A DNA stretch of 37,857 bases from Nitrospinaceae bacterium (GCA_029261635.1 JAJDAW010000070.1:1-37857); one strand, 5' to 3'. Positions 1,486-33,413 are shown, counted from the stretch's first letter. Translations and numbers: made by a program. The notes: generated by a model not told the origin, from the sequence alone.

Positions 1486-1947
1486 ATGGGTACGATTCCT
1501 GATGGATTCACTTCTGTAACACCATTTATCACTTTTGATGACACCACAAAGGCTGTTGAGTTTTATAAAAAAGCTTTGGGTGCAGTAGAAAAGTTGACCT
1601 TTCCAGCCCCCGATGGAACATTGATGTATGCTGAAATCCAGATAGGAACAGCTCGATTAATGATGGGTATGCCTTGTCCTGAAACGGGAACAGAATCTAC
1701 AAAGCTTGCTAAAGATTTAAGGGGTTCCTCGGTTTCTTTTTATGTTTATGTGGAGAATGTGGAAGCCGCAATTGAGAAAGCAAAAGATGCAGGTATGAAC
1801 GAGAAAAAAGGAATTGTAGATATGTTTTGGGGTGATCGCATGGGCACGCTTACCGATCCATTTGATATTGAATGGACGATAGCTCAGCATATACGCGATG
1901 TTTCACCTGAAGATATGCAAGAAGCTATGAAAACAATGTGTGCTTAA
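1486..1947 (+). CDS. VOC/glyoxalase family protein (PhnB-like)
   Basis: IPDGFTSVTPFI...AVEFYKKALGA...DMFWGDRMGTLTDPFDIEW. GGAG RBS upstream. Confidence 0.9.
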   Translation: MGTIPDGFTSVTPFITFDDTTKAVEFYKKALGAVEKLTFPAPDGTLMYAEIQIGTARLMMGMPCPETGTESTKLAKDLRGSSVSFYVYVENVEAAIEKAKDAGMNEKKGIVDMFWGDRMGTLTDPFDIEWTIAQHIRDVSPEDMQEAMKTMCA

Positions 1948-1953
1948 ATACTA

Positions 1954-1986
1954 CGAAGGCAGGCGGGTTTATCCCGCTTGCTTTCG
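1954..1986 (+). terminator. 14-bp stem-loop between the VOC genes (no U-tract)
   Basis: CGAAGGCAGGCGGG-tttat-CCCGCTTGCTTTCG with two G-U pairs on the + strand. Confidence 0.45.
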
Positions 1987-2009
1987 CAATATTAAAAGGA
2001 GGAATTTTT

Positions 2010-2360
2010 ATGGGAAACATAAATAACAGCATCAACTATATCGAGCTCCCTATGGTAAAAAATGCCGAGACTAAAAAATTCTACCAGCAGGCGTTTGAAT
2101 GGGAGTTTGCAGATTGGGGGCCGGACTACATTAGTTTTTCCGGGGCAAATATTGATGGCGGGTTCAATGGTATGGGAGATGCGCAAATATCTAATCCCGG
2201 TATCCTTGTTGTTCTTTATGCAAGCGACCTTGGTAAAAAACTGAAAGAGGTGATTCAGGCAGGAGGAGAGATTTTAAAGTCAATTTATGAATTTCCCGGC
2301 GGGAAAAGATTTCACTTTCTCGATCCTAATGGGAATGAGTTGGCAGTATGGTCAGAATAA
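2010..2360 (+). CDS. VOC/glyoxalase/bleomycin-resistance family protein
   Basis: Start re-called to 2010 after AAGGAGG. INYIELP...KKFYQQAFEW.F.DWGPDY...FPGGKRFHFLDPNGNELAVWSE. Confidence 0.9.
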   Translation: MGNINNSINYIELPMVKNAETKKFYQQAFEWEFADWGPDYISFSGANIDGGFNGMGDAQISNPGILVVLYASDLGKKLKEVIQAGGEILKSIYEFPGGKRFHFLDPNGNELAVWSE

Positions 2361-2379
2361 ATTTCAGAGGAAATGGTAA

Positions 2380-2949
2380 ATGAAAAAACGATGCGCATGG
2401 GTGGGGCATAATTCCAAACCCCTGGATATTGAGTACCATGATGAAGAGTGGGGTGTTCCCGTTCACGATGATAAAACATTGTTCGAGTTTCTTATTTTAG
2501 AGGGTGCGCAGGCAGGGCTTAGCTGGACTACGATTCTAAATAAGCGCGAGAACTACCGCAAAGCCTATAATAAATTCGATCCCAAAAAAGTGGCAAAGTT
2601 CGACGATGCCAAACAACAGAAACTCCTGCAAGACCGGGGAATTGTGCGTAATAGATTGAAGGTGGCCGCTTCGGTCACCAATGCCAGAGTGTTTTTAGAA
2701 GTGCAGAAGGAATTTGGCAGCTTCGATAAATATATCTGGGGCTTTATAGGAGGTAAGCCTCGAAAAAATAAATGGAAATCGATGGATCAAATTCCAGCGA
2801 CTACAAAAGAATCAGATTTCATGAGCAAAGATTTAAAAAAACGCGGATTCAAATTTGTCGGTTCCACCATCTGCTACGCCTTCATGCAAGCCACGGGTAT
2901 GGTGAACGACCACACAACAGATTGTTTTAGATACAAGGCTAAGCCTTGA
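2380..2949 (+). CDS. tag: DNA-3-methyladenine glycosylase I
   Basis: RCAW...YHDEEWG, LFEFLILEGAQAGLSW, FKFVGSTICYAFMQATGMVNDH...C. Confidence 0.96.
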   Translation: MKKRCAWVGHNSKPLDIEYHDEEWGVPVHDDKTLFEFLILEGAQAGLSWTTILNKRENYRKAYNKFDPKKVAKFDDAKQQKLLQDRGIVRNRLKVAASVTNARVFLEVQKEFGSFDKYIWGFIGGKPRKNKWKSMDQIPATTKESDFMSKDLKKRGFKFVGSTICYAFMQATGMVNDHTTDCFRYKAKP

Positions 2950-3051
2950 GGAGGGATATGCAATCAAAAGTTCATCCATTTTCAAGCAATGTGTTGTATT
3001 AGGGAAACCACAACTTGAAGTCAAGAATGGACTGATATATTTATAAAACTA

Positions 3052-3492
3052 TTATGGTTTTGCAAAGCTAGTCACCCCATCGTGCCTTATCGATAATATC
3101 CAAGAAAACGTTTCATCAAAAATGTCTATATCATCTGCGCTGGGATACCAAATGTCATTAAAGTGTTTTTCAAGATCATTCACCTTGAATCTATCTACAT
3201 CATCATATCTATACCAATTTAAATAAACACAGCTATTTGGCTGAATATTATGATCGCGCAATAAATCTAGCAAACTAAAGCTATCATCTGATGAACTAAC
3301 ACCATCAACAATCAATGCAATTGTGTTTATTTTTTCAACTAATTTTAATAAGTCGTTGTTTTGATTTAATAGAAATTTTTCAAATAAATTCTTTTGTAGA
3401 TCAGATAAGTCTGCTTTTTTAAGCGAATAATACTCAGGGAAAACTTTATCAGGGTATTCGTTTTTAAAATGCATAATTTTAAATTCTTGCAT
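3052..3492 (-). CDS. Hypothetical protein (AT-rich, possibly immunity-like)
   Basis: 146 aa ORF with RBS; C-terminal DIWYPSADDIDIFD..FSWILSIRHDG looks like a conserved motif. Confidence 0.6.
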   Translation of the reverse strand: MQEFKIMHFKNEYPDKVFPEYYSLKKADLSDLQKNLFEKFLLNQNNDLLKLVEKINTIALIVDGVSSSDDSFSLLDLLRDHNIQPNSCVYLNWYRYDDVDRFKVNDLEKHFNDIWYPSADDIDIFDETFSWILSIRHDGVTSFAKP

Positions 3493-3522
3493 TAACTTGA
3501 CCCCTTAACTTAATAGGGAAAT

Positions 3523-3999
3523 TTATTTACTGCAATATAAGCTCAAGGCAAACCATTTGCTTTCACTTGTTCTTAAAGTGGATTTAAAAATCGAAGGAAT
3601 CTCTAAACCACGTTCACAGTCAAAAAGAATATGGGTAGATTGGCTATAATCTATTCCATTCCTTCTAACATCCAGACTAGAAATACATTTATTGCTGGAA
3701 GTTTTTTTATCTCTCTCGCTTATTACTGTTGCCTGCCATTTATCACTTGATGAATTAAATGAAAAACTAGAATGCCCTTCTAGCCAATTTTTCTCACTGC
3801 CGTTAGGCTCTACTTTTTTAAGTTGGTAAATTTCTAATGGTTTGATTTTTTTGTTCTCGACTTCGATCACACATTTCCCCCAAGGCTCTTCTTTATTTTT
3901 TTGAGCAACTTGATATTCGAGCGACGCGCAATTGTTTAGGATTGCAGCAGAAGCTAGTAGCAGGAAAAAGTATAAAAATTGTATTCTCCAAAATGCCAT
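3523..3999 (-). CDS. Hypothetical lipoprotein/exported protein
   Basis: Start re-called to 3999 with GGAG upstream. Hydrophobic N-terminus ending in LNNC. Confidence 0.55.
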   Translation of the reverse strand: MAFWRIQFLYFFLLLASAAILNNCASLEYQVAQKNKEEPWGKCVIEVENKKIKPLEIYQLKKVEPNGSEKNWLEGHSSFSFNSSSDKWQATVISERDKKTSSNKCISSLDVRRNGIDYSQSTHILFDCERGLEIPSIFKSTLRTSESKWFALSLYCSK

Positions 4000-6970: not shown

Positions 6971-7147
6971 ATGAGCGATGCAGACCAAAAAAAAGATATT
7001 CCTGATGCTCCTGAGCAAAAAGAAGAGCCTGGTCTGATGGAATCGTATGGGTCTTTCCCTGTATGGTCTTTAAAGTTGATTGATGCGTTGACCCCAGAAT
7101 TTCTGATTACCAAGGGACCCGTTGAGAAGAAAAAACTTCCCCAGTAA
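6971..7147 (+). CDS. Small hypothetical protein upstream of purH
   Basis: 58 aa; AAGGT upstream; ends 15 nt before purH. Confidence 0.5.
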   Translation: MSDADQKKDIPDAPEQKEEPGLMESYGSFPVWSLKLIDALTPEFLITKGPVEKKKLPQ

Positions 7148-7162
7148 CAACTTCCAAATAAA

Positions 7163-8707
7163 ATGAAATCCATACAAAGGGCATTGATAAGTGTGTCGGA
7201 CAAGACAGGTGTCCTTGAATTCGCCAGGGAACTGCATAATTCCGGAATAGAAATTCTTTCCACGGGAGGCACCGCAGAGCTTTTGCGGAAAGGTGGTTTG
7301 CCTGTTATACAGGTGTCAGACTACACGGGCTTCCCGGAAATGATGGATGGCAGAATAAAAACCCTGCATCCCAGGGTGCATGGCGGAATTCTGGGGCGCA
7401 GAGATGTCCCCGAGCATATGCAAGCCATGGAAGATCATGGCATTCGCCCGATTGACCTTGTGGTGATAAACCTTTATCCGTTTGAACAGACCATAGCAAA
7501 GGAAGGCTGTACTTTAGAAGAGGCCATAGAGAATATAGATATTGGCGGTCCTGCGATGGTTCGTTCTTCAGCAAAAAACTGCAATGATGTAACCATTATT
7601 GTCGATCCAAAAGAGTATGACCTGATACTTAAAGAGATGAAAACAGGCTCTGTTTCTCTGGAAACCCGTCGCCGATTGAGTCGAGATGCGTTTGCCCACA
7701 CCGCTCGGTACGATTCATTGATCGCTACTTTTTTATCCGGTCAATGGGAAGAGGGTTTCCCGCCTTCTTTAAATCAACCTTATACAAAAGTTCAAGATTT
7801 GCGCTATGGGGAAAACCCTCACCAGTCAGCCGCTTTGTATAGGGAGAGCCGTCCGCTGCAAACCGATATCGTGTCGGCCAAGCAGTTGCAGGGCAAAGAA
7901 TTGTCTTTCAATAACTTTATCGATTTAAACGCAGCCTGGGAATTGGTGCGGGAAATGGATTCGGGAGCGGTTGCTATTATTAAGCATACCAACCCTTGCG
8001 GAGTTGCATTGGGAGACGACCAGTTAAAAACTTTCATTTTGGCAAGAGAGGTAGACCCTACTTCCGCATTTGGAGGAATTTTGGGGTTTAATCAACCTGT
8101 CACCGTAAAGACGGCGGAAGAGATCCTCAAAAATTTTGTAGAGGCTGTGGTAGCACCTGGTTTCGATCCGGAAGCGGTCAAATTATTTTCTGCAAAGAAA
8201 AATATTCGTCTAATGCAAATGCCGGGTGAAGCATTGAATGTAAAAGACCAGCGTTTCGACCTGAAACGAATTGGCGGTGGACTATTGGTTCAGAGTCAAG
8301 ATTCTTTGAACTATGTTGAAGACCAGTTAAAAATTGCCAGTGATAGAGAACCCGATGCCCGGGAAATGGAAGACATGAAGTTTGCTTGGCTGGTGGCAAA
8401 ACACGTAAAGTCCAATGCCATCATTTATGCAAAAGACAAAGAGATTCTTGGAATCGGGGCAGGCCAAATGAGTCGGGTTGACTCTGCTCGGGTTGCGGTC
8501 GAAAAGGCTCGCAAATCGCTATCCGGCGCGGTCATGGCTTCTGATGCGTTTTTCCCCTTTAGAGATTCTGTCGATGAAGCTGCCAAGAATGGAATTTCAG
8601 CTATTATTTCCCCAGGCGGTTCCATTCGAGATGAAGAAGTTTTACAGGCCGCAAATGAGCATAATATTGCCATGGTTTTTACTGGCACCCGCCATTTTAA
8701 GCATTAA
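7163..8707 (+). CDS. purH: Bifunctional AICAR transformylase/IMP cyclohydrolase
   Basis: RALISVSDKTG, LSTGGTA, IDIGGP, LRYGENPHQ, KHTNPCG, ASDAFFPF, TRHFKH. Confidence 0.99.
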   Translation: MKSIQRALISVSDKTGVLEFARELHNSGIEILSTGGTAELLRKGGLPVIQVSDYTGFPEMMDGRIKTLHPRVHGGILGRRDVPEHMQAMEDHGIRPIDLVVINLYPFEQTIAKEGCTLEEAIENIDIGGPAMVRSSAKNCNDVTIIVDPKEYDLILKEMKTGSVSLETRRRLSRDAFAHTARYDSLIATFLSGQWEEGFPPSLNQPYTKVQDLRYGENPHQSAALYRESRPLQTDIVSAKQLQGKELSFNNFIDLNAAWELVREMDSGAVAIIKHTNPCGVALGDDQLKTFILAREVDPTSAFGGILGFNQPVTVKTAEEILKNFVEAVVAPGFDPEAVKLFSAKKNIRLMQMPGEALNVKDQRFDLKRIGGGLLVQSQDSLNYVEDQLKIASDREPDAREMEDMKFAWLVAKHVKSNAIIYAKDKEILGIGAGQMSRVDSARVAVEKARKSLSGAVMASDAFFPFRDSVDEAAKNGISAIISPGGSIRDEEVLQAANEHNIAMVFTGTRHFKH

Positions 8708-24748: not shown

Positions 24749-25564
24749 ATGGCGATTAAATTTACCAAAATGAGTGGTAGTGGCAACGATTTCATCATCA
24801 TCGACAACCGTGAGCCTGTGATGGGCAACGATAAGAAAGTCGATTTCGTCAAACGGGTTTGTGACCGCAAAATGTCTATCGGAGCCGACGGTGTTATTTT
24901 TGTCGAAAACTCGGACAAGGCCGACATCAAATGGGATTTTTATAACGACGATGGTTCGTCTGCCGAGATGTGCGGCAACGGCGGTCGTTGTGTTGCGCGT
25001 TATGCTGTTGAAAAAGGAATGGCCTCGCCTGAACTGACTCTTGAAACTTTGGCGGGAATCATTGGCGCGAAAGTCGATGGTGCCAATGTGCGGGTCAAGC
25101 TGACGGCTCCTGAAAATTTACGCAAAGATATTGCGGTGGATTTGAATGGCGATCATTACCAGATCGACAGTCTCAACACGGGTGTTCCACACGCGATCAT
25201 TTATTCGGAAAATGTTGAAAATAATAATGTGAAGGCAGTGGGCAATGGAGTCCGTTTCCACAATGCGTTTGCTCCGTCAGGGACTAATGTCAACTTTGTC
25301 GAGAAGGTCGGCGACCATGCTTTGAAGGTTCGTACTTATGAGCGCGGTGTTGAAGATGAGACGCTGGCTTGTGGCACGGGTTGTGTGGCTTCGGCTTTGC
25401 TTTCGTCTTATAAAAATTTAGTGCAACCTCCGGTTGAAGTGAAAACCCGTGGAGGCGAGATTTTAAAAGTAGATTTCGAGTCCGCTAACGGAGCGGAGGT
25501 GACCGATGTTTATCTCGAAGGTCTCACTCGAATTGCTTTTGAAGGCACTCTTAAAGAATATTAA
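24749..25564 (+). CDS. dapF: Diaminopimelate epimerase
   Basis: FTKMSGSGNDF, AEMCGNGGRC, RTYERGVEDETLACGTG. Confidence 0.98.
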   Translation: MAIKFTKMSGSGNDFIIIDNREPVMGNDKKVDFVKRVCDRKMSIGADGVIFVENSDKADIKWDFYNDDGSSAEMCGNGGRCVARYAVEKGMASPELTLETLAGIIGAKVDGANVRVKLTAPENLRKDIAVDLNGDHYQIDSLNTGVPHAIIYSENVENNNVKAVGNGVRFHNAFAPSGTNVNFVEKVGDHALKVRTYERGVEDETLACGTGCVASALLSSYKNLVQPPVEVKTRGGEILKVDFESANGAEVTDVYLEGLTRIAFEGTLKEY

Positions 25565-25581
25565 TCATTCCAGGAAAATTT

Positions 25582-26448
25582 ATGTTTGAAGGATCTTATG
25601 TAGCAATAGTCACTCCGTTTAAAAACGGTAAAGTGGATGCGGCGGCTCTTAAAGGGCTGATTGAGTTTCACATTGAAAATGGAACCAGCGGCATTGTTCC
25701 CTGTGGCACCACAGGAGAATCGGCCACGCTGAGTTCAGCAGAGCACGAAGAGGTTATTGGTATTACGGTAGAAGCCTGTGCGGGCCGAGTGTCTGTGCTT
25801 GCGGGTACCGGGTCGAACGCCACTCACGAAGCGATTGAACTGACGCAAAGTGCAGAAAAGCTTGGCGCCAATGGGGCGTTGCTTATTACTCCTTATTACA
25901 ACAAGCCGAGTCAAGAAGGGCTTTATCAGCATTTTGCCGCTGTCGCGAAAGAAACCAAACTGCCTGTCGTTCTTTACAATGTGCCGAGTCGAACGGCGAT
26001 TAATATGTTACCTGCAACGGTGGCACGACTTGCGAAAATTGAAAATATTGTGGGCATCAAAGAAGCTTCGGGCGACTTGGTGCAGATCAGCGAAATCATT
26101 CAAGCTTGCGATTCAGATTTCTCCGTCATTTCTGGAGAAGACGCGCTCAACTGGCCGATTCTGGCTTTGGGCGGAAAAGGTTTTATATCGGTCACCGCAA
26201 ATATTGTTCCGGGTAAGCTTGCTCAACTTTATAAAGCCGCGAGTGAAGACGATGTTGAAACTGCAAAGTCTTTGCATTACGAGTTATTGAAACTCAACGA
26301 CATCATGTTTGTCGAGACGAATCCTATTCCGGTTAAAGCCGCGCTTGCCATTATGGGTCGCGTAGATAACGAATTCCGTTTGCCGCTTTGCCCACCGTCT
26401 GACGACAATCTCAATAAATTGAAATCCGTTCTTAAAGAATACGTGTAG
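25582..26448 (+). CDS. dapA: 4-hydroxy-tetrahydrodipicolinate synthase
   Basis: GTTGESATL, PYYNKP, LYNVPSRT, GIKEASG, ETNPIPVK. Confidence 0.98.
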   Translation: MFEGSYVAIVTPFKNGKVDAAALKGLIEFHIENGTSGIVPCGTTGESATLSSAEHEEVIGITVEACAGRVSVLAGTGSNATHEAIELTQSAEKLGANGALLITPYYNKPSQEGLYQHFAAVAKETKLPVVLYNVPSRTAINMLPATVARLAKIENIVGIKEASGDLVQISEIIQACDSDFSVISGEDALNWPILALGGKGFISVTANIVPGKLAQLYKAASEDDVETAKSLHYELLKLNDIMFVETNPIPVKAALAIMGRVDNEFRLPLCPPSDDNLNKLKSVLKEYV

Positions 26449-26481
26449 ATATTCGTTTAATAGTTAACAGGAGCAGGTGCT

Positions 26482-27282
26482 TTGACAAAGATATTAGTTA
26501 TAGGAATTGCAGGTCGCATGGGCAAAACCATTGCCGAGTGCATTGATGACACCGACGGTGTTGAACTGGCTGGTGGAACCGAACGCGCAGGAAGCGATTT
26601 AATAGGTCAAGATGCAGGAGAAGTTTCTGGCCTTGGCACAAAGGGTGTTGCTGTATCGGATGATCTAGCCAAAGCGTTAGAAGGTTGTGATGCGGTGATC
26701 GATTTCACGACACCCGATTCGAGCATGGTTACTTTGCGCGCAGCGGCGGATAAAGGAAAATCGGTTGTGGTTGGCACAACGGGATTCTCCCCCGATCAGA
26801 AAAAAGAAATTGCCGAGCTTGCTAAAAAAATTCCTTTGGTTGTCGCTCCTAACATGAGCATTGGCGTTAATGTTTTGTTCAAGCTGGTAGCCGATGCGGC
26901 GCGTGTTTTGGGTGATGACTATGACGTCGAAATTGTTGAGGCTCACCATAAGTTTAAGAAAGATGCGCCTAGCGGCACTGCGGTTCGCATTTCTGAAATT
27001 GTTGCCGACTCGTTAAACCGCGATCTAGATGAGGTGGGGGTTTATGGAAGGCAAGGCATCACCGAACGTACCGCCAAGGAAATTGGCATCCATACCGTGC
27101 GCGCGGGAGACATTATTGGTGAGCATCGTGTGTTGTTTGGCGGCATGGGAGAAAACTTCGAAATTTTTCACCGAGCGCAAAGCAGACAAACTTTTGCCCG
27201 AGGGTCTATTCGTGCGGCGCAATGGATTCTTCAGCAGTCCAACGGTATCTACGATATGCAGGATGTTTTAGGATTGCGATAA
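26482..27282 (+). CDS. dapB: 4-hydroxy-tetrahydrodipicolinate reductase
   Basis: GIAGRMG, IDFT, GTTG, EAHHKFKKDAPSGTA. TTG start with AGGAG upstream. Confidence 0.98.
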   Translation: MTKILVIGIAGRMGKTIAECIDDTDGVELAGGTERAGSDLIGQDAGEVSGLGTKGVAVSDDLAKALEGCDAVIDFTTPDSSMVTLRAAADKGKSVVVGTTGFSPDQKKEIAELAKKIPLVVAPNMSIGVNVLFKLVADAARVLGDDYDVEIVEAHHKFKKDAPSGTAVRISEIVADSLNRDLDEVGVYGRQGITERTAKEIGIHTVRAGDIIGEHRVLFGGMGENFEIFHRAQSRQTFARGSIRAAQWILQQSNGIYDMQDVLGLR

Positions 27283-27298
27283 TGCGGTAAAAAAAGCC

Positions 27299-28108
27299 AT
27301 GGGAAAACCAACAAAAATTAAAAAAGGCGAAGCCTTTCAATTTGTTCGGCGGGATTTTTTAAAGCTTCTATCCTTTGCAGGTCTCTCCACTCTTCTGCCC
27401 GGTCGTGTTTTTGCGAAGGACGATTGGCGCAACGATAAAAACATACCCAAACAATACATACAAAATCGCGACCTTCCCGATTTTCATATTCGTAGTGCAA
27501 ATCCATTTATGGGTGTTGATATGAATGCTTGGGGCCTGGCCGTTGGCGGTATGGTGAAGAACCCTATTGGATTCAGCTATGAAGATTTGTTTGGGATGAA
27601 AATGTTTACCCAGATTTCCCGTCTCAAGTGCGTTGAATGCTGGTCGGCAAAAGCGGAATGGCAAGGCTTTCAGTTTTCTGAATTGGTTGGAAAGGTTCAG
27701 CCCGACCCCGCCGCGAAATTTGTTTATATTCAGTCTGCCGACTCTTATTACGAAAGTTTTGCTATCGAAGAACTGTTGCGTCCGCGTGTGTTGTTTGTTC
27801 TGCGTATGAACGGAAAGTCTTTAAGCAAAGACCATGGTTATCCGTTGCGGTTGATCGCGCCGTTTAAATACGGCTACAAAAATATCAAGTACATTACCAG
27901 CATCAAGTTCATGGATACTCGGAAAAGAAATTACTGGGCTAACAGCGGTCCTTATTCCGTAGATGGAACCATTCAGCCGGGCATCGATCATCCTCTCGAC
28001 TATAATAAAAAACCTCTGCCGATTAACGGCGGTGAAGTTTTCCACTTCTTCGACCAGCGTGACGCTGGACTCAATAGGTCGGCACCCAAAAAAAATTCCA
28101 CACCGTGA
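27299..28108 (+). CDS. Tat-exported molybdopterin oxidoreductase, sulfite-oxidase fold (MsrP-like)
   Basis: RRDFLK Tat motif; RLKCVECWS; HGYPLRLIAPFKYGYKNIKYI. Confidence 0.88.
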   Translation: MGKPTKIKKGEAFQFVRRDFLKLLSFAGLSTLLPGRVFAKDDWRNDKNIPKQYIQNRDLPDFHIRSANPFMGVDMNAWGLAVGGMVKNPIGFSYEDLFGMKMFTQISRLKCVECWSAKAEWQGFQFSELVGKVQPDPAAKFVYIQSADSYYESFAIEELLRPRVLFVLRMNGKSLSKDHGYPLRLIAPFKYGYKNIKYITSIKFMDTRKRNYWANSGPYSVDGTIQPGIDHPLDYNKKPLPINGGEVFHFFDQRDAGLNRSAPKKNSTP

Positions 28109-28150
28109 GGCCTTTTACAATAGTCCGATCTGGTAGAAGAAAATTTCTCC

Positions 28151-28177
28151 TCCCCCTGATAAGGGGGACTGAGGGGG
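28151..28177 (+). repeat. CCCCCTGATAAGGGGG-type repeat
   Basis: Near-identical to 20896-20922. Confidence 0.85.
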
Positions 28178-28186
28178 TTGCTCTTT

Positions 28187-28939
28187 ATGCTTGACCGAAA
28201 GTTGAATGTCTTTGCGCCTTTTACTTTAACCCTCTTCTGTTGTTTTCTTTTTGCCTGCGACTCCTATGAAGTAAGGCAAATTAAGGTGGATGTTCCTGCT
28301 GATGTTCAGGTTCCTGATGGGATGGTTTATATCCCTGCCGGGGATTTTATTATGGGTCACAAAGAAGAGCCTCGAACGCGATTGGGAGAAACGGTTTCGT
28401 CGCATGCCTATCTCATTGATCGTTATGAAGTGAGCCACGAACAGTACAAAAAGTTTCGCGCGGAGCATAGCTATCATTCTAAATCAGCCGCTTATCCGGT
28501 GACACATGTTTCCTTTTCAGAGTCTTTAGACTATTGCAAATCCTACGGCAAACGGTTGCCAACAGAAATCGAATGGGAAAAAGCGGCGAGAGGCACAGAC
28601 GGCAGAAAATGGCCGTGGAGAGTATTTTTCGGTCATCCCAATAACGGATTTTCAGGTTTCATTTCAGAGCCAGTAGGCAAGAGAACGGAATGGATCAGTC
28701 CCTATGGCGTTTATGGAATGGGACACAATGTATGGGAATGGATTGGCGAAGGATATACTTATTCAGGGCAACCTGAAAACGAACGCGATCGATTTAAAAT
28801 TATACGCGGCGGATTGTTGCAGACCCATATCACAATAAAATTTTCACCTGCCTATTTTAGAAATTGGATGACTCCAGAATCTAAACTTAATTTTATTGGT
28901 TTTCGTTGCGCGAAAGATGTTGGAAAAATGGGAGAGTAA
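28187..28939 (+). CDS. FGE-sulfatase (SUMF1/EgtB/PvdO) fold lipoprotein
   Basis: LFAC lipobox; MVYIPAGDFIMG, RLPTEIEWEKAARG, NVWEW, IGFRC. ATG at 28187 preferred over TTG at 28178. Confidence 0.88.
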   Translation: MLDRKLNVFAPFTLTLFCCFLFACDSYEVRQIKVDVPADVQVPDGMVYIPAGDFIMGHKEEPRTRLGETVSSHAYLIDRYEVSHEQYKKFRAEHSYHSKSAAYPVTHVSFSESLDYCKSYGKRLPTEIEWEKAARGTDGRKWPWRVFFGHPNNGFSGFISEPVGKRTEWISPYGVYGMGHNVWEWIGEGYTYSGQPENERDRFKIIRGGLLQTHITIKFSPAYFRNWMTPESKLNFIGFRCAKDVGKMGE

Positions 28940-28948
28940 AGCTGTGAG

Positions 28949-29425
28949 CTAGAAATCGCCTCTAAGGTGACTGGTGATTTCTTTAGCTGCTCGTTCAAAT
29001 AATTTATTTTCAGTGCCGCCGGTAGGCCCGCCTTTTACCCAAGAACTAACTTCCCATGCACCGACCATATCGCGACCATCAAAAAGTGCGACTTTGACTC
29101 TTAATTTCGATTTAGCCCAATCAGAAAACCCCATGGATGCGATGCGTAAAGCACGGTTACCTTCATCGTATTCGAGAACTTTATATTTTAGGCGGTAGCG
29201 GGCGCTTTCACCTGCAAGGGCATAACTGGTGTCTACCATTGCTTCTTCGACGGCACTTTGTAATTGCGAGCCCGCATTTTGCAATTCATAACCTCGGGAT
29301 GTCATATCTATAAGGACTATGGTGTTTTCAGCATTTTGGTAGCGCTTTTTAGTAAGTGAACCCACTCCCGAACAAGCTGGTAAAGTCAGCAGAGAGAGTA
29401 TTAAAATTTGAGTGATGAGTTTCAT
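28949..29425 (-). CDS. Lipoprotein (DUF4410-like)
   Basis: Start re-called to 29425; LPAC lipobox; YDEGNRALR motif. Confidence 0.65.
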   Translation of the reverse strand: MKLITQILILSLLTLPACSGVGSLTKKRYQNAENTIVLIDMTSRGYELQNAGSQLQSAVEEAMVDTSYALAGESARYRLKYKVLEYDEGNRALRIASMGFSDWAKSKLRVKVALFDGRDMVGAWEVSSWVKGGPTGGTENKLFERAAKEITSHLRGDF

Positions 29426-29484
29426 AGTTCCTTTTGATAGATATAACTCCCTATATTCTAACAAAATTCAACCCATTTTGACAA

Positions 29485-29669
29485 CTGCTCGCCTCAGGGG
29501 CAAAGATTCTATCTCGAAGCTTGAGTGTTATTGTTTCGCAAAACGAGAATAGACCTATGGCCTCCCACGCTAGTGGGCTGCTCGACGCAGGGCAAAGATT
29601 CTATCTAGAAGCTTGGAGGCTCTTGTTTTGCAGAACGAGAATAGACCTATTACCTCTCACGTTAGTGAG
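29485..29669. repeat. Diverged tandem duplication of about 93 bp (2 copies)
   Basis: Copies at 29485-29577 and 29578-29669 share CAAAGATTCTATCT and AACGAGAATAGACCTAT. Confidence 0.92.
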
Positions 29670-31410
29670 TGAACCAGTGGAGGATGCCTTCTTCAAATTC
29701 GCTGAACCAGATTTGGACTTCAATGGGGATGAGGCTATTGATATAAGTCATGTATCCGGTGGCGAGGACGATTCCTAATATGATCAACAAAATTCCGCTG
29801 AACAGGTTGGTGGTGTGGAGGAAAATAGTTTTTCCTGCGATGGGAATATCCCATCCCTTTCCGCGAAGCAGAGTCCAGAACATTCCATCCTTTGGAAGAT
29901 TCCCGCACAAGGTGGCAACGAGGATCAAGGGCAGACCGAGCCCGACTGCGTAAAAGAAGAGAAGGTTCATTCCCTGCCAGACTGTTTTTTCAGAAGCCGC
30001 CAGCATGAGAATGCTGGAGAGAATAGGGCCAACACATGGAGTCCAACCGAGAGCAAAGGTGGCACCGAACAGGAAGAATCCGATAAACGTGGAAGCGGGT
30101 TTTCCCTGGAAGCTGGCACCTGAAAACCCTTTTCCAAATAAAGTCATGATACCGAAGACTACAACGACGCCGCCGCCGATTTGCGAAATCTGAAACATGT
30201 AGTCGCGTAACAATTGTCCGAGTACGCTGGCAGAGGCTCCCATTGCGACGAATAGACTGGCGAGTCCGAAAAAGAAAGCGAGTGACATCATGCCCATGCG
30301 TGCCCGATCGGTTTGCGCGGTCACGGCAAAATAAGCTGGCAGGATGGGTAAGGTGCATGGAGATAAAAAACTAAAAACTCCTGCGACAAATGCAAGAAGG
30401 GTTAAGACCAGAATTCCTGATTCGGGAAGATTGGTTTTAGGTGCGAATGGATTGAACGGAGCTGCCGTTTTGGAAGCTGTGTTTAGTGATGCAGGTTTTT
30501 CAGCGGCGCCTGTTGTAGTCGAGGAACTTGCAGGTTGGCTCGATAAAGACAATCCGGTTTTTGCTACTGTTGGTTTGTTTTCGCTGGCACAGCGAAACCC
30601 AACATCGGGCCCTGGCTCATCTGGGTTTGCAAATTGTCGATAACCGCTACGTGCAAACATTTTAATAGCTTCAGCGTACATAGGGAAATGGCCGATATCG
30701 CTTGCTGAGTGGCCGCGAATTATTTTGTATCCCGAATCGTAGTAATCGTTTTTATGGGTGCTGCCTTTATAGGGTTTGTAGTCGTCTGCTACCCATTCCC
30801 AAACATTTCCTATCAGATCGTGTATGCCCTCTTTGCTAGCGGACTTTGGGAAACTGCCTACAGCGACGGGTTTGTTCTTGCTGCCTGCTCGATTTGAAAG
30901 ATGCGATATGTTGGATTGGAATTCGTTTCCCCATGGATATTCATTGCCATTCGTTCCTTTAGCAGCGCGCTCCCACTGTTTTTCGGTGGGCAATTTTTTT
31001 TCCGCCCATTGACAAAAGTTTGCGGCGTTGAACCAGGTCACCCATGTCACCGGTTCCTTATCTTTTCCAGCGGCAAAATTATTGTCTTTCCAGTTGCCGG
31101 GTGGGACAGCTCCTAAGGCATCAATATATTTTTTGTAGCGTTCGTTAGTGACCTCAAAGGTGTCAATGTAAAATCCTTTTAGGAAAATTTTTTGTTGAGG
31201 GCTTTCATCTGCATACCAGGGTTTAGGGATGCCCATGGAAAGTGCCTCGGCGGTTTCATCTTTTTTATTCGTGCCGAAAATAAAATGTCCCGAAGGTATA
31301 TGAACCATTTCCCCTTCCAGAGAATGATCTGTCTGGGTCCATCCAGATGAAGAAATGAAGAGAAAAGAAATTGCGAGAGTGAGCGATAAAAATTTCAGGC
31401 GAAGTGGCAA
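29662..31410 (-). CDS. FGE-sulfatase fold fused to a CcdA/DsbD transmembrane domain
   Basis: Signal peptide; KLPTEKQWERAAKG, GNVWEW, VGFRC; S/T/A/P-rich linker; SFLSPCTLP and GWTPCVGPIL. Confidence 0.88.
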   Translation of the reverse strand: MPLRLKFLSLTLAISFLFISSSGWTQTDHSLEGEMVHIPSGHFIFGTNKKDETAEALSMGIPKPWYADESPQQKIFLKGFYIDTFEVTNERYKKYIDALGAVPPGNWKDNNFAAGKDKEPVTWVTWFNAANFCQWAEKKLPTEKQWERAAKGTNGNEYPWGNEFQSNISHLSNRAGSKNKPVAVGSFPKSASKEGIHDLIGNVWEWVADDYKPYKGSTHKNDYYDSGYKIIRGHSASDIGHFPMYAEAIKMFARSGYRQFANPDEPGPDVGFRCASENKPTVAKTGLSLSSQPASSSTTTGAAEKPASLNTASKTAAPFNPFAPKTNLPESGILVLTLLAFVAGVFSFLSPCTLPILPAYFAVTAQTDRARMGMMSLAFFFGLASLFVAMGASASVLGQLLRDYMFQISQIGGGVVVVFGIMTLFGKGFSGASFQGKPASTFIGFFLFGATFALGWTPCVGPILSSILMLAASEKTVWQGMNLLFFYAVGLGLPLILVATLCGNLPKDGMFWTLLRGKGWDIPIAGKTIFLHTTNLFSGILLIILGIVLATGYMTYINSLIPIEVQIWFSEFEEGILHWFTH

Positions 31411-31421
31411 GAGTTTATCCT

Positions 31422-31937
31422 TTATTTGAGAAGGTTTTCAAAATAAAGAATATTGCTGGGCGTGGCCCAGTCTTCTGCACCAAATAGAGCACCGATAATT
31501 TTCCCTTCAGGATCAATCATAAAAGTGGCAGGAAGGCTAGTCACACCAAATGCGTTGCTGGCTTTTAACCGCTGGTCGAGAAGGATGGTGAAGTTGAGAT
31601 TATTTGCTTTAACAAAAGGCTTAACAATTGTTGCGCCAAACATATCGTTTGAAATGGCGAGCAGTGCAAAATTTTTATTTTTGAATCGTTGATAGAGGGC
31701 TTCCAAGGAAGGCATTTCTATTTTGCAGGGTCCACACCAGGTAGCCCAAAAGTTTACTAGAACATATTTGCCACGAAACTGACTGAGGCTGATTTCTTCT
31801 CCATCCATGTTTTTTAACGTAAAATTGGGGGCTACCATTCCTTCTTCCTCTGCTGCATGGGCTGAGGTATGCAAAACAAAAAGGAGGGCCAAACACGAAA
31901 TAGCCAGGGAAATTTTTTTATGAATCAAACTTTTCAC
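31422..31937 (-). CDS. TlpA/ResA-like periplasmic thioredoxin
   Basis: Signal peptide; APNFTL, LVNFWATWCGPCKIEMP. Confidence 0.95.
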   Translation of the reverse strand: MKSLIHKKISLAISCLALLFVLHTSAHAAEEEGMVAPNFTLKNMDGEEISLSQFRGKYVLVNFWATWCGPCKIEMPSLEALYQRFKNKNFALLAISNDMFGATIVKPFVKANNLNFTILLDQRLKASNAFGVTSLPATFMIDPEGKIIGALFGAEDWATPSNILYFENLLK

Positions 31938-31996
31938 GGATGGTTTATTTTTGATGAAAAAAGCGAGGTAATTGGAAAAGGGTGTTTAAAGTGGAA

Positions 31997-32230
31997 CTAC
32001 TCGACAGCTTCTATACAGCGTACCATGGGAACGGCTTTTTTAAGTGCCTTTTCAATTCCCATTTTTAAAGTCATGGTCGAACTGGAACAGGAGGCGCAGG
32101 AACCTACCAGACGTAATTTAACCACTCCGTCATCAATGTCCACCAGTTCTACATTGCCCCCGTCCGCCATGAGCATAGGTCGCAGGGTTTCTAGTACTTC
32201 TTCGACTTCTTCTTTCATGGATTCTATCAT
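31997..32230 (-). CDS. NifU/Nfu C-terminal domain protein
   Basis: [15 protein letters not shown]...[18 protein letters not shown]. Confidence 0.95.
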
Positions 32231-32315
32231 TCATTCACACAGGTTTTGGGACTAGAGGCGAAACTCTGCATTTAGTCCGTCTACATTTTTTTCAAAACAT
32301 AATTTGGCAGTGAGG

Positions 32316-33060
<745 letters not shown>

Positions 33061-33122
33061 AGAGTATTTTGGGGTGTTCGGGATGGGTTGTCAAATGGTT
33101 TTGGAAGATTTAGCGGCAGAAG

Positions 33123-33413
33123 TCAGGGATTGGTGCGGACAACAAGATCGTCCGTGACTGTCACCTGACAGGCCATACGAAAATCATCGGGTTTCTTACC
33201 CAATTTGTCGGTTTCGGTCTCATTTCTGGGATCGATCTTGCCAGATAAAACCTGTACTGTGCAAGCGGTGCATAAACCTCGCCCACGACAGTTGAGAATT
33301 TTGGTGATGTGAGGATAGATACTGAACTTGTTCCGAATCGCGGCTTCCCGCAGATTTTCCCCTTCTTCCACCTCAATGGTGCGGTTCTCTTTTTCAAAAC
33401 GAACTTTTAGCAT
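33123..33413 (-). CDS. [2Fe-2S] ferredoxin
   Basis: NCRGRGLCTAC...RMACQ. Confidence 0.92.
   Translation of the reverse strand: MLKVRFEKENRTIEVEEGENLREAAIRNKFSIYPHITKILNCRGRGLCTACTVQVLSGKIDPRNETETDKLGKKPDDFRMACQVTVTDDLVVRTNP

Follow-up and report, generated by a model that had tools for sequence, protein, structure and literature searches.

The question raised by this locus is which proteins serve an exported, MsrP-like molybdoenzyme that has no MsrQ gene beside it. The locus occupies positions 27,299 to 31,937 of a stretch of 37,857 nucleotides from Nitrospinaceae bacterium (GCA_029261635.1, JAJDAW010000070.1:1-37857), hereafter called the window. Two gene blocks converge there: unit A (27299-28939, + strand), which encodes the molybdenum (Mo) enzyme and an FGE-fold lipoprotein named FGE1, and unit B (28949-31937, - strand), which encodes a lipoprotein, an FGE-CcdA fusion and a TlpA-like protein (Table 1). 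An initial annotation had described these five genes and their motifs, all of which were recovered as open reading frames (ORFs), Pfam matches and motif positions. It had also joined the blocks into a thiol relay, in which electrons would pass from cytoplasmic thioredoxin over FGE-CcdA and TlpA to Cys111 and Cys114 of the Mo enzyme and thereby reduce or protect it, with the FGE folds as docking scaffolds between the blocks. We instead consider it on balance probable, from comparative sequence analysis, that the enzyme works in the periplasm as a Mo oxidoreductase, has a dedicated, non-catalytic FGE-fold partner and is fed by haem proteins, and that unit B is a separate, general exporter of reductant, the two units being neighbours by inherited synteny.

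The molybdoenzyme and its FGE-fold companion

The window belongs to a metagenome-assembled genome of the Nitrospinaceae (G000; 2.18 Mb, 81% complete), and all its close relatives are Nitrospinaceae or Nitrospinota records. The surroundings of the Mo enzyme were compared in a synteny sample of 58 related Nitrospinota loci, in which genes were called as simple ORFs. FGE1 lies downstream of the enzyme gene on the same strand in 56 of these loci and the other two end within 162 nt, so that the two genes are paired in 56/56 loci with room; they overlap or abut in five (L027, L030, L033, L050 and L057). In f5, a deeper Nitrospinota family (families are coded f1-f9), the pair is present without dapB, TlpA or CcdA neighbours, alongside MsrPQ. 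The Mo enzyme and FGE1 are a conserved unit, and the FGE-fold lipoprotein that had been noted as a neighbour of the enzyme proves to be its fixed companion. A metagenome protein of 499 aa with both PF00174 and PF03781 (P0390) was considered as a natural fusion of the two and rejected: it reads through the FGE1 signal peptide, and the C-terminal half seems to be in the wrong frame, as expected of an assembly or frameshift artefact.

FGE1 scores 128.7 bits against its Pfam family (E 4e-37), and its best profile match in the PDB is human SUMF1 (4e-27). The Cys of its lipobox LFAC (Cys27) is nearly invariant among 39 orthologues, in which H153, N155, FSGF at 158-161, E164, R169, Q215, H217, R228 and N229 are, among others, fully invariant. 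In the profile alignment, the stretch of human FGE that holds a Cys pair aligns with GGLLQTHLTIKF in FGE1, which contains no Cys, and the neighbouring His is kept as His217. We take this human Cys pair, in numbering and in role, to be the copper-binding pair of the active site. Because the residues aligned with it are not Cys, FGE1 is, on this alignment, not an FGE enzyme. Only Cys120 and Cys244 are left in the mature protein. The two FGE domains of the region, those of FGE1 and FGE-CcdA, each contain no more than two Cys. In human FGE these correspond by alignment to a pair that presumably forms a structural disulfide, which argues against a part for them in a thiol relay.

The Mo enzyme covers positions 7-169 of the 169 in its Pfam profile (117.7 bits, cut-off 24, E 5e-34). 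Its twin-arginine motif, RRDFLKL, stands at residues 17-23 (27347-27367), and RRxF[LIVM] was found in 100/120 homologues, in keeping with twin-arginine (Tat) export. Among solved structures, E. coli YedY/MsrP (1xdq, E 2.5e-22) gives the best match, and RLKCVECWS of the enzyme aligns with its RMRCVEAWS: Cys111 corresponds to the Cys of YedY and Cys114 replaces Ala, so that CVEC does stand where MsrP has CVEA. The Cys of this YedY motif is, as we understand it, the Mo ligand, a role that Cys111 presumably shares. Against the MsrP equivalog NF003767 the enzyme reaches 114.2 bits, below the cut-off of 207, and because of this shortfall the 269-aa protein is, by profile score, not an MsrP orthologue.

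The second Cys is no chance feature of one sequence, since CVECWS is present in 119/120 of the homologues listed, whose identity is 65% or higher throughout, and an alignment of 39 enzyme sequences shows no variation at either Cys. A wider search of 50%-identity representatives returned 6017 relatives at E ≤0.001 and 29 at E ≤1e-30. Among the best 150 of these, Gly is the commonest residue after CVE or CVT (CVEGWS 20, CVECWS 14, CVTGWS 10, CVEGWG 9, CVQCWS 4; further residues seen are A, S, T, K and R). The CxxC-type clade extends to the Chloroflexota (CVECWS, 40-50% identity) and the Acidobacteriota (CVQCWS). In a tree of 33 sequences, a quick maximum-likelihood version whose more careful search is unfinished, all Cys-type rows fall in one 23-row clade (Shimodaira-Hasegawa-like approximate likelihood ratio test, 91), interleaved with eight Gly-type rows and one Ser-type row. 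One sister pair, with a support of 98, consists of P0268 (Cys) and P0269 (Gly), and the branches that are well supported require two or more changes. Conservation of the second Cys thus holds within the lineage and gives way to Gly or Ser in sister lineages: by this tree it is a lineage trait, and its replacement in near relatives speaks against a redox role that the enzyme could not do without. The AlphaFold2 model of the enzyme has a mean predicted local distance difference test (pLDDT) of 63.6; it places the CVEC loop between strands 102-109 and 117-124 with pLDDT <50, and for that reason the geometry of the two Cys is not readable from it.

Table 1. Features of the region and of its upstream context, in window coordinates.
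Feature	Coordinates	Strand	Basis or content
dapF	24749-25564	+	upstream context of the Mo-enzyme gene (whole stretch 24749-27282)
dapA	25582-26448	+	upstream context
dapB	26482-27282	+	upstream context
Tat-exported short SUOX-fold molybdoenzyme, YedY/MsrP-like, 269 aa	27299-28108	+	PF00174 Oxidored_molyb
C111-V-E-C114 loop	27629-27640	+	alignment to 1xdq
FGE1, predicted non-catalytic FGE-fold lipoprotein, 253 aa	28178-28939	+	PF03781 FGE-sulfatase
Probable lipoprotein, DUF4410-like, 171 aa, last gene of the convergent block	28949-29464	-	signal peptide, LPAC (Cys31)
78-nt intergenic repeat, two tandem copies, 85% alike	29498-29575 and 29590-29667		between FGE-CcdA and lipoprotein genes
FGE-CcdA fusion, 582 aa	29662-31410	-	PF03781 (residues 33-275), PF02683 DsbD_TM (residues 336-513)
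TlpA/ResA-like exported thioredoxin-fold protein, 171 aa	31422-31937	-	AhpC-TSA, Redoxin, Thioredoxin_8

MsrQ and the recurrence of SUOX-FGE pairs

No MsrQ gene adjoins the Mo enzyme in the window, as the initial annotation had stated, and none was found in G000 (81% complete) with PF01794, with NF003831 or with an f5 MsrQ protein as query. A PF01794 survey of 101 genomes of the phylum, including 57 of the window's own family, gave matches above the cut-off in 0/57 same-family genomes and in 3/101 overall, all three in f5. NF003831 matches neither G000 nor three relatives with single-contig genomes that are 97-98% complete (G004, G006 and G011), and it does match the f5 genome used as positive control (G012). 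The absence of msrQ thus stands for the 57 same-family genomes and does not extend to the deeper family f5. Independence of the Mo enzyme from MsrQ is well supported by these profile searches for the window's family. Within the Nitrospinota, a canonical msrP-msrQ operon is seen in f5 only (L059:443-1941, in G012), which implies that msrQ was lost in f1-f4.

The true MsrP of G000 is encoded elsewhere (C158:5298-6266; 322 aa, RCVEAWA) and scores 397.6 bits where the NF003767 cut-off is 207. It is part of a row (C158:4361-6643; L175) that consists of a VTT/DedA-like gene, CutA, MsrP and then an exported 114-aa ORF that matches no family, with no MsrQ; this DedA-CutA-MsrP arrangement without MsrQ recurs in G004, G006 and G011.

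Four SUOX-fold genes were counted in G000. Among them is a second Tat-exported CVECWS enzyme (C140:1546-2283; L173), which is preceded by an FGE-fold gene of its own (734-1558) with a 13-nt overlap. The FGE-then-enzyme order of this C140 type is kept in 29/30 loci of the phylum, and the exception starts at the enzyme gene (29/29 with room). A third orthogroup, not found in G000, is an MsrP paralogue (MsrP2; RCVETWS; 387.2 bits against the MsrP cut-off of 207), again preceded by an FGE-fold gene in 29/30 loci (29/29 with room). A gene for a 547-aa protein with cytochrome c and EB_dh domains stands before this FGE gene in 18/30 loci, and the cluster of cytochrome c/EB_dh, FGE-fold and MsrP2 genes is a candidate for an MsrQ-free electron path to MsrP. 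The cluster is seen at L165:4561-7916 (G004) and in L286-L315, with a conserved 217-aa ORF converging on it.

The gaps in the three pairings range from -13 to about 90 nt, always on the same strand and across four families. PF03781 genes number 22, 26, 26 and 23 in G000, G004, G006 and G011, and the domain occurs in only 3/14 control genomes. From 22-26 FGE genes per 2.2-3.3 Mb genome, chance adjacency to an FGE gene is roughly estimated at 2-3% per gene, and tight same-strand linkage in three orthogroups is well beyond chance adjacency. A tree of the FGE paralogues of G000 (20 domains) is an unresolved star, with no signal for or against duplication of the pairs as units.

Some further observations concern these gene families. 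At C140:2344-3975 a di-haem oxidoreductase-like gene (PF06537) converges on the pair of FGE and CVECWS enzyme genes. The C-terminus of the C140 enzyme recurs, 96% identical, as a fragment of 92 aa at C140:4230-5280 (L173), next to a transposase-like ORF where the contig ends; this copy may stem from duplication mediated by an insertion sequence or from an assembly repeat. Several PF03781 matches lie within long multidomain ORFs of 800-1068 aa. A further SUOX gene (C31-type), near FGE and leucine-rich repeat genes, was not counted as a pair: it has no Tat motif while the FGE protein is exported, and its adjacency to FGE is found in some genomes and absent in G006.

The convergent block, its linkage and its surroundings

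FGE-CcdA joins a periplasmic FGE-fold domain (30586-31314; PF03781, 153.3 bits) to a CcdA/DsbD transmembrane core (29872-30405; PF02683, 63.2 bits, cut-off 27.1). The core has one Cys per half, Cys352 (SPCTLP) and Cys459 (TPCVGP), and is predicted to transfer electrons; no redox CxxC was seen in the FGE-fold N-domain. The TlpA-like protein has a WCGPC motif at residues 67-71 (31725-31739) and an N-terminal signal-like segment, and stays below the curated cut-offs of ResA (130.8 vs 170), TlpA (93.5 vs 230) and DsbE (43.4 vs 123). Full-length matches to the fusion are listed for f1-f4 only, the best matches in f5-f9 being much weaker, and an f6 genome (G017) has an unfused CcdA. The listing of full-length fusions for families in which MsrQ passes no cut-off would suit the thiol relay.

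Against such a relay stands the finding that FGE-CcdA is the sole PF02683 match in G000, G004, G006 and G011. A sole CcdA must serve several periplasmic thioredoxins, so that it cannot be dedicated to the Mo enzyme and its place beside the enzyme gene is not readable as dedication. In G000, C124 carries PF01578 genes of CcmF and CcmC size followed by a 192-aa ORF with a WCAPC thioredoxin fold, a ccm-type cluster named by size, order and motif rather than by family scan, and two more WCxxC ORFs occur elsewhere in the genome. With these features unit B looks like a general exporter of reductant of a housekeeping kind.

The linkage of the two blocks was read from the position of FGE-CcdA relative to FGE1. 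FGE-CcdA lies within 1.6 kb of FGE1 in 31 loci, is split from it by an insert of 2.9-4.2 kb in seven and in nine does not turn up over a distance of at least 5 kb; another nine loci are too short to place it and two have no room for FGE1. Among the 47 informative loci the blocks are therefore adjacent in 31 and interrupted or unlinked in 16, so the linkage on which a joint system would depend holds in part: the 31 speak for the relay, as does the convergent adjacency in the window itself, and the 16 speak against it. TlpA follows FGE-CcdA in 29/29 loci with room. The unlinked loci belong to more distant relatives (enzyme 66-73% identical) and have variable, unrelated genes downstream of FGE1. 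In the complete G006 genome a distance of 64 kb separates the enzyme gene from FGE-CcdA, and the complete G011 genome has kept the FGE-CcdA block while the Mo enzyme is missing. Conversely, the f5 pair of enzyme and FGE1 occurs without the fusion.

Outside the phylum the proposed co-occurrence of CxxC-type enzymes with FGE-CcdA and TlpA fails: an adjacent CcdA or TlpA gene was found in 0/120 loci, comprising 40 from the Chloroflexota and 80 from the Acidobacteriota. The 40 Chloroflexota loci gave no tblastn match to FGE1, FGE-CcdA or the lipoprotein of the window, and a Pfam scan of 136 neighbour ORFs from 33 of them gave no PF03781 and no PF02683. Seven TlpA-like tblastn matches near the Chloroflexota homologues were considered as support for the relay and rejected, being BCP-type peroxiredoxins instead; five full ORFs and one frame translation have PxDTPGCT or an equivalent and no export signal, as is expected of cytoplasmic proteins. 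The Chloroflexota CVECWS homologues sit among genes for peroxiredoxin, NifU/cysteine desulfurase and rubrerythrin (L073, L088, L091), and small monohaem CxxCH cytochrome c lipoproteins are encoded directly downstream of the homologue in L073 (stretch 1663-3811) and L081 (stretch 6983-8385). The 80 Acidobacteriota loci yielded one FGE-like match 2.7 kb off (L243), five TlpA-like matches at least 3.1 kb off and no FGE-CcdA. Neighbour clustering, which recovered the enzyme gene in 36/80 of these loci of high guanine-cytosine content, gave a TonB-type outer-membrane protein and ORFs that match no family. The thiol-relay model is undercut because its synteny fails outside close relatives.

Upstream of unit A, dapB directly precedes the Mo-enzyme gene in 55/58 loci, and the other three begin at the Mo-enzyme gene. 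In the window the gap from dapB to the Mo-enzyme gene is 16 nt and that from the Mo-enzyme gene to FGE1 is 69 nt. dapB has Pfam DapB_N/DapB_C matches; the names dapF and dapA are our presumptive assignments from tblastn synteny and general knowledge rather than from a family scan. Unit A runs in the direction of dapFAB and probably shares a transcript with it. Scans of the region for promoters and terminators (17 sites vs 12.5 expected, and 17 vs 11.4) gave no usable operon boundaries, and Rfam gave no match on 27000-32400.

The convergent genes on the - strand run in the order NifU-like, TlpA-like, FGE-CcdA and lipoprotein. A NifU-like, a 4Fe-4S ferredoxin-like and a JAB/MPN-like gene and a small 2Fe-2S-like gene lie after TlpA on the same strand (31997-33413); this row is syntenic in most related loci, and its names rest on a Pfam scan for the NifU gene only. 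The lipoprotein that ends unit B scores 20.9 bits against DUF4410, below the cut-off of 26, and is restricted to the Nitrospinota, its nearest Atlas clusters being Nitrospinota DUF4410-like proteins; a promoter-like site at its gene (29484-29455) is a consensus match only. Partial copies of the 78-nt repeat occur on 11 other G000 contigs, and the element is present in the close relatives L001-L004, L035 and L058, in the same and in other places. It has no Rfam match and looks like a dispersed intergenic repeat of the repetitive extragenic palindromic (REP) or miniature inverted-repeat transposable element (MITE) type.

Electron supply, rival readings and known systems

In the reading that we favour, unit A would encode a Tat-exported, MsrQ-independent YedY/MsrP-like enzyme of a distinct short CxxC subfamily. 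FGE1, which has lost the catalytic Cys of FGE, would be a non-enzymatic partner that docks, tethers or regulates the Mo enzyme. The enzyme itself would be a periplasmic oxo-transfer reductase with sulfoxides as its most likely substrate, given that its best family match is MsrP and that its Chloroflexota homologues have oxidative-stress neighbours. Its re-reduction, the weakest step of the scheme, may be due to periplasmic haem proteins rather than to MsrQ or thiols, as the cytochrome c/EB_dh gene of the MsrP2 cluster and the small cytochromes at L073 and L081 suggest. Unit B would export reducing power through the TlpA-like protein, the sole CcdA with its N-terminal FGE fold and the lipoprotein, and would in addition supply the CcmG-like thioredoxin that belongs to the cytochrome c maturation cluster elsewhere in the genome.

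Several findings weigh against this reading. No haem gene adjoins unit A in any locus inspected, which makes the donor a guess. None of the 40 Chloroflexota or 80 Acidobacteriota loci places an FGE gene right beside its CxxC-type enzyme, from which it follows that the subfamily overall does not need the partner, and in G000, G004, G006 and G011 neither an FGE gene nor MsrQ adjoins the canonical MsrP. Because the FGE family is expanded and the genomes are related, the pairings count as three events and not as about 115. The adjacency of units A and B in 31/47 loci, together with the FGE folds in both, is compatible with some cross-talk, and the enzyme could instead be an oxidase or dehydrogenase.

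The cross-talk is taken up by a modified relay, which we regard as a tentative alternative. In the Nitrospinales, which have no detectable MsrQ, FGE folds would serve as dedicated subunits of YedY/MsrP-type enzymes in all three pairs and dock them to a donor, a substrate or the membrane; the fold would be shared with FGE-CcdA, which would bring exported thiol reductant.

It is rather unlikely that there is no functional coupling at all and that the adjacency of FGE genes follows from operon structure and many paralogues, FGE1 having an unrelated periplasmic role. The 22-26 FGE-domain genes per genome, the star-like paralogue tree with no sign of pairs duplicating as units, the partner missing outside the phylum and the C31-type SUOX gene, which lacks a Tat motif and is FGE-adjacent in some genomes only, are all in line with such a coincidence. 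Against it speaks the tight same-strand linkage that three orthogroups retain in four families wherever a locus has room (56/56, 29/29 and 29/29), as does a unit A pair that survives the loss of all other synteny in f5.

A periplasmic dehydrogenase (acting, for example, on sulfite or on another oxo-acceptor) that passes electrons to cytochromes, with FGE1 binding or delivering the substrate, is improbable. The SUOX fold spans both directions of oxo transfer, the enzyme has weak NCBIfam matches to SoxC, SorA and SorT besides its score below the MsrP equivalog cut-off, and FGE-like domains of EgtB/OvoA-type enzymes bind small thiol substrates, to go by PDB titles and by their mechanism as we presume it. 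The best matches are nevertheless to YedY/MsrP and not to sulfite dehydrogenases, a Pfam scan found no Mo-co dimerisation domain in the enzyme, unlike in the SorA-like paralogues of relatives, and the peroxiredoxin and rubrerythrin genes beside the Chloroflexota homologues point to oxidative-stress repair. The relay to Cys111/Cys114 as first proposed, although the extra Cys is invariant in the Nitrospinota, MsrQ was not found, both blocks hold an FGE fold and a CcdA-thioredoxin lipoprotein-Msr route is described for S. pneumoniae in the part consulted of PMC3914529, is very improbable in view of a CcdA that is not enzyme-specific, the split blocks, the G011 block that lacks the enzyme, the f5 pair that lacks the fusion, the relatives in two other phyla and the swaps of the second Cys.

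If the pairing of FGE1 and the Mo enzyme is physical, as in our favoured reading, it would add another wiring of periplasmic Mo enzymes, assign a function for the first time to part of the 22-26 FGE-like genes in each genome and provide a further case of the FGE fold as a protein-binding scaffold. If the FGE-fold partners are moreover true subunits, the three pairs together would represent an architecture of two proteins that is new among periplasmic Mo oxidoreductases. An order of marine nitrite oxidisers keeps MsrP and two MsrP-like subfamilies with no MsrQ shown, most of these enzymes being encoded beside a catalytically dead FGE fold. Searches of open-access PMC papers and bioRxiv found no description of an FGE-SUOX partner pairing or of an FGE-CcdA fusion, nor the term FGE-sulfatase in papers that name CcdA, DsbD or TlpA.

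Among known systems, the window enzyme most resembles MsrPQ (YedYZ) of E. coli: it is Tat-exported, has the SUOX fold, holds the presumed Mo-ligand Cys in an RxxCVExWS loop and has MsrP as its best family match. It differs in its score (114 bits vs 207), in reading CVEC and not CVEA, in being about 50 residues shorter than the MsrP of its own genome (322 aa) and in having a fixed FGE-fold partner gene, with no MsrQ found in the genome or family. MsrP, in contrast, requires MsrQ according to the section of a 2026 review that we draw on (PMC13488963). Unit B recalls the CcdA-Etrx-MsrAB2 system of S. pneumoniae and DsbD/ScsB in setting a CcdA/DsbD core beside an exported thioredoxin fold. The end acceptors of those systems are thiol enzymes or CcmG and not an Mo enzyme. 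DsbD cores can bear alternative periplasmic N-domains, as the portion consulted of a report on ScsB indicates (PMC3322552); unlike in DsbD/ScsB, the N-domain of unit B is an FGE fold with only two Cys, aligned with a human FGE Cys pair.

FGE1 shares the PF03781 fold with SUMF1, Tsi3, PorK/GldK and PvdO. It is unlike SUMF1 in that the active-site Cys pair is missing, and like Tsi3 in that it has no signs of catalysis and is encoded beside a specific partner; unlike in the Tsi3 group, the partner gene encodes a molybdoenzyme. Tsi3 is presented, in the excerpt available to us, as an FGE-domain protein that acts purely by partner binding, the FGE domain having been co-opted as a scaffold (10.1101/2021.05.21.445229). 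Set against these systems, the families of the enzyme, the exporter and the thioredoxin are known, and the MsrQ-less wiring together with the recurrent FGE-fold companion is new.

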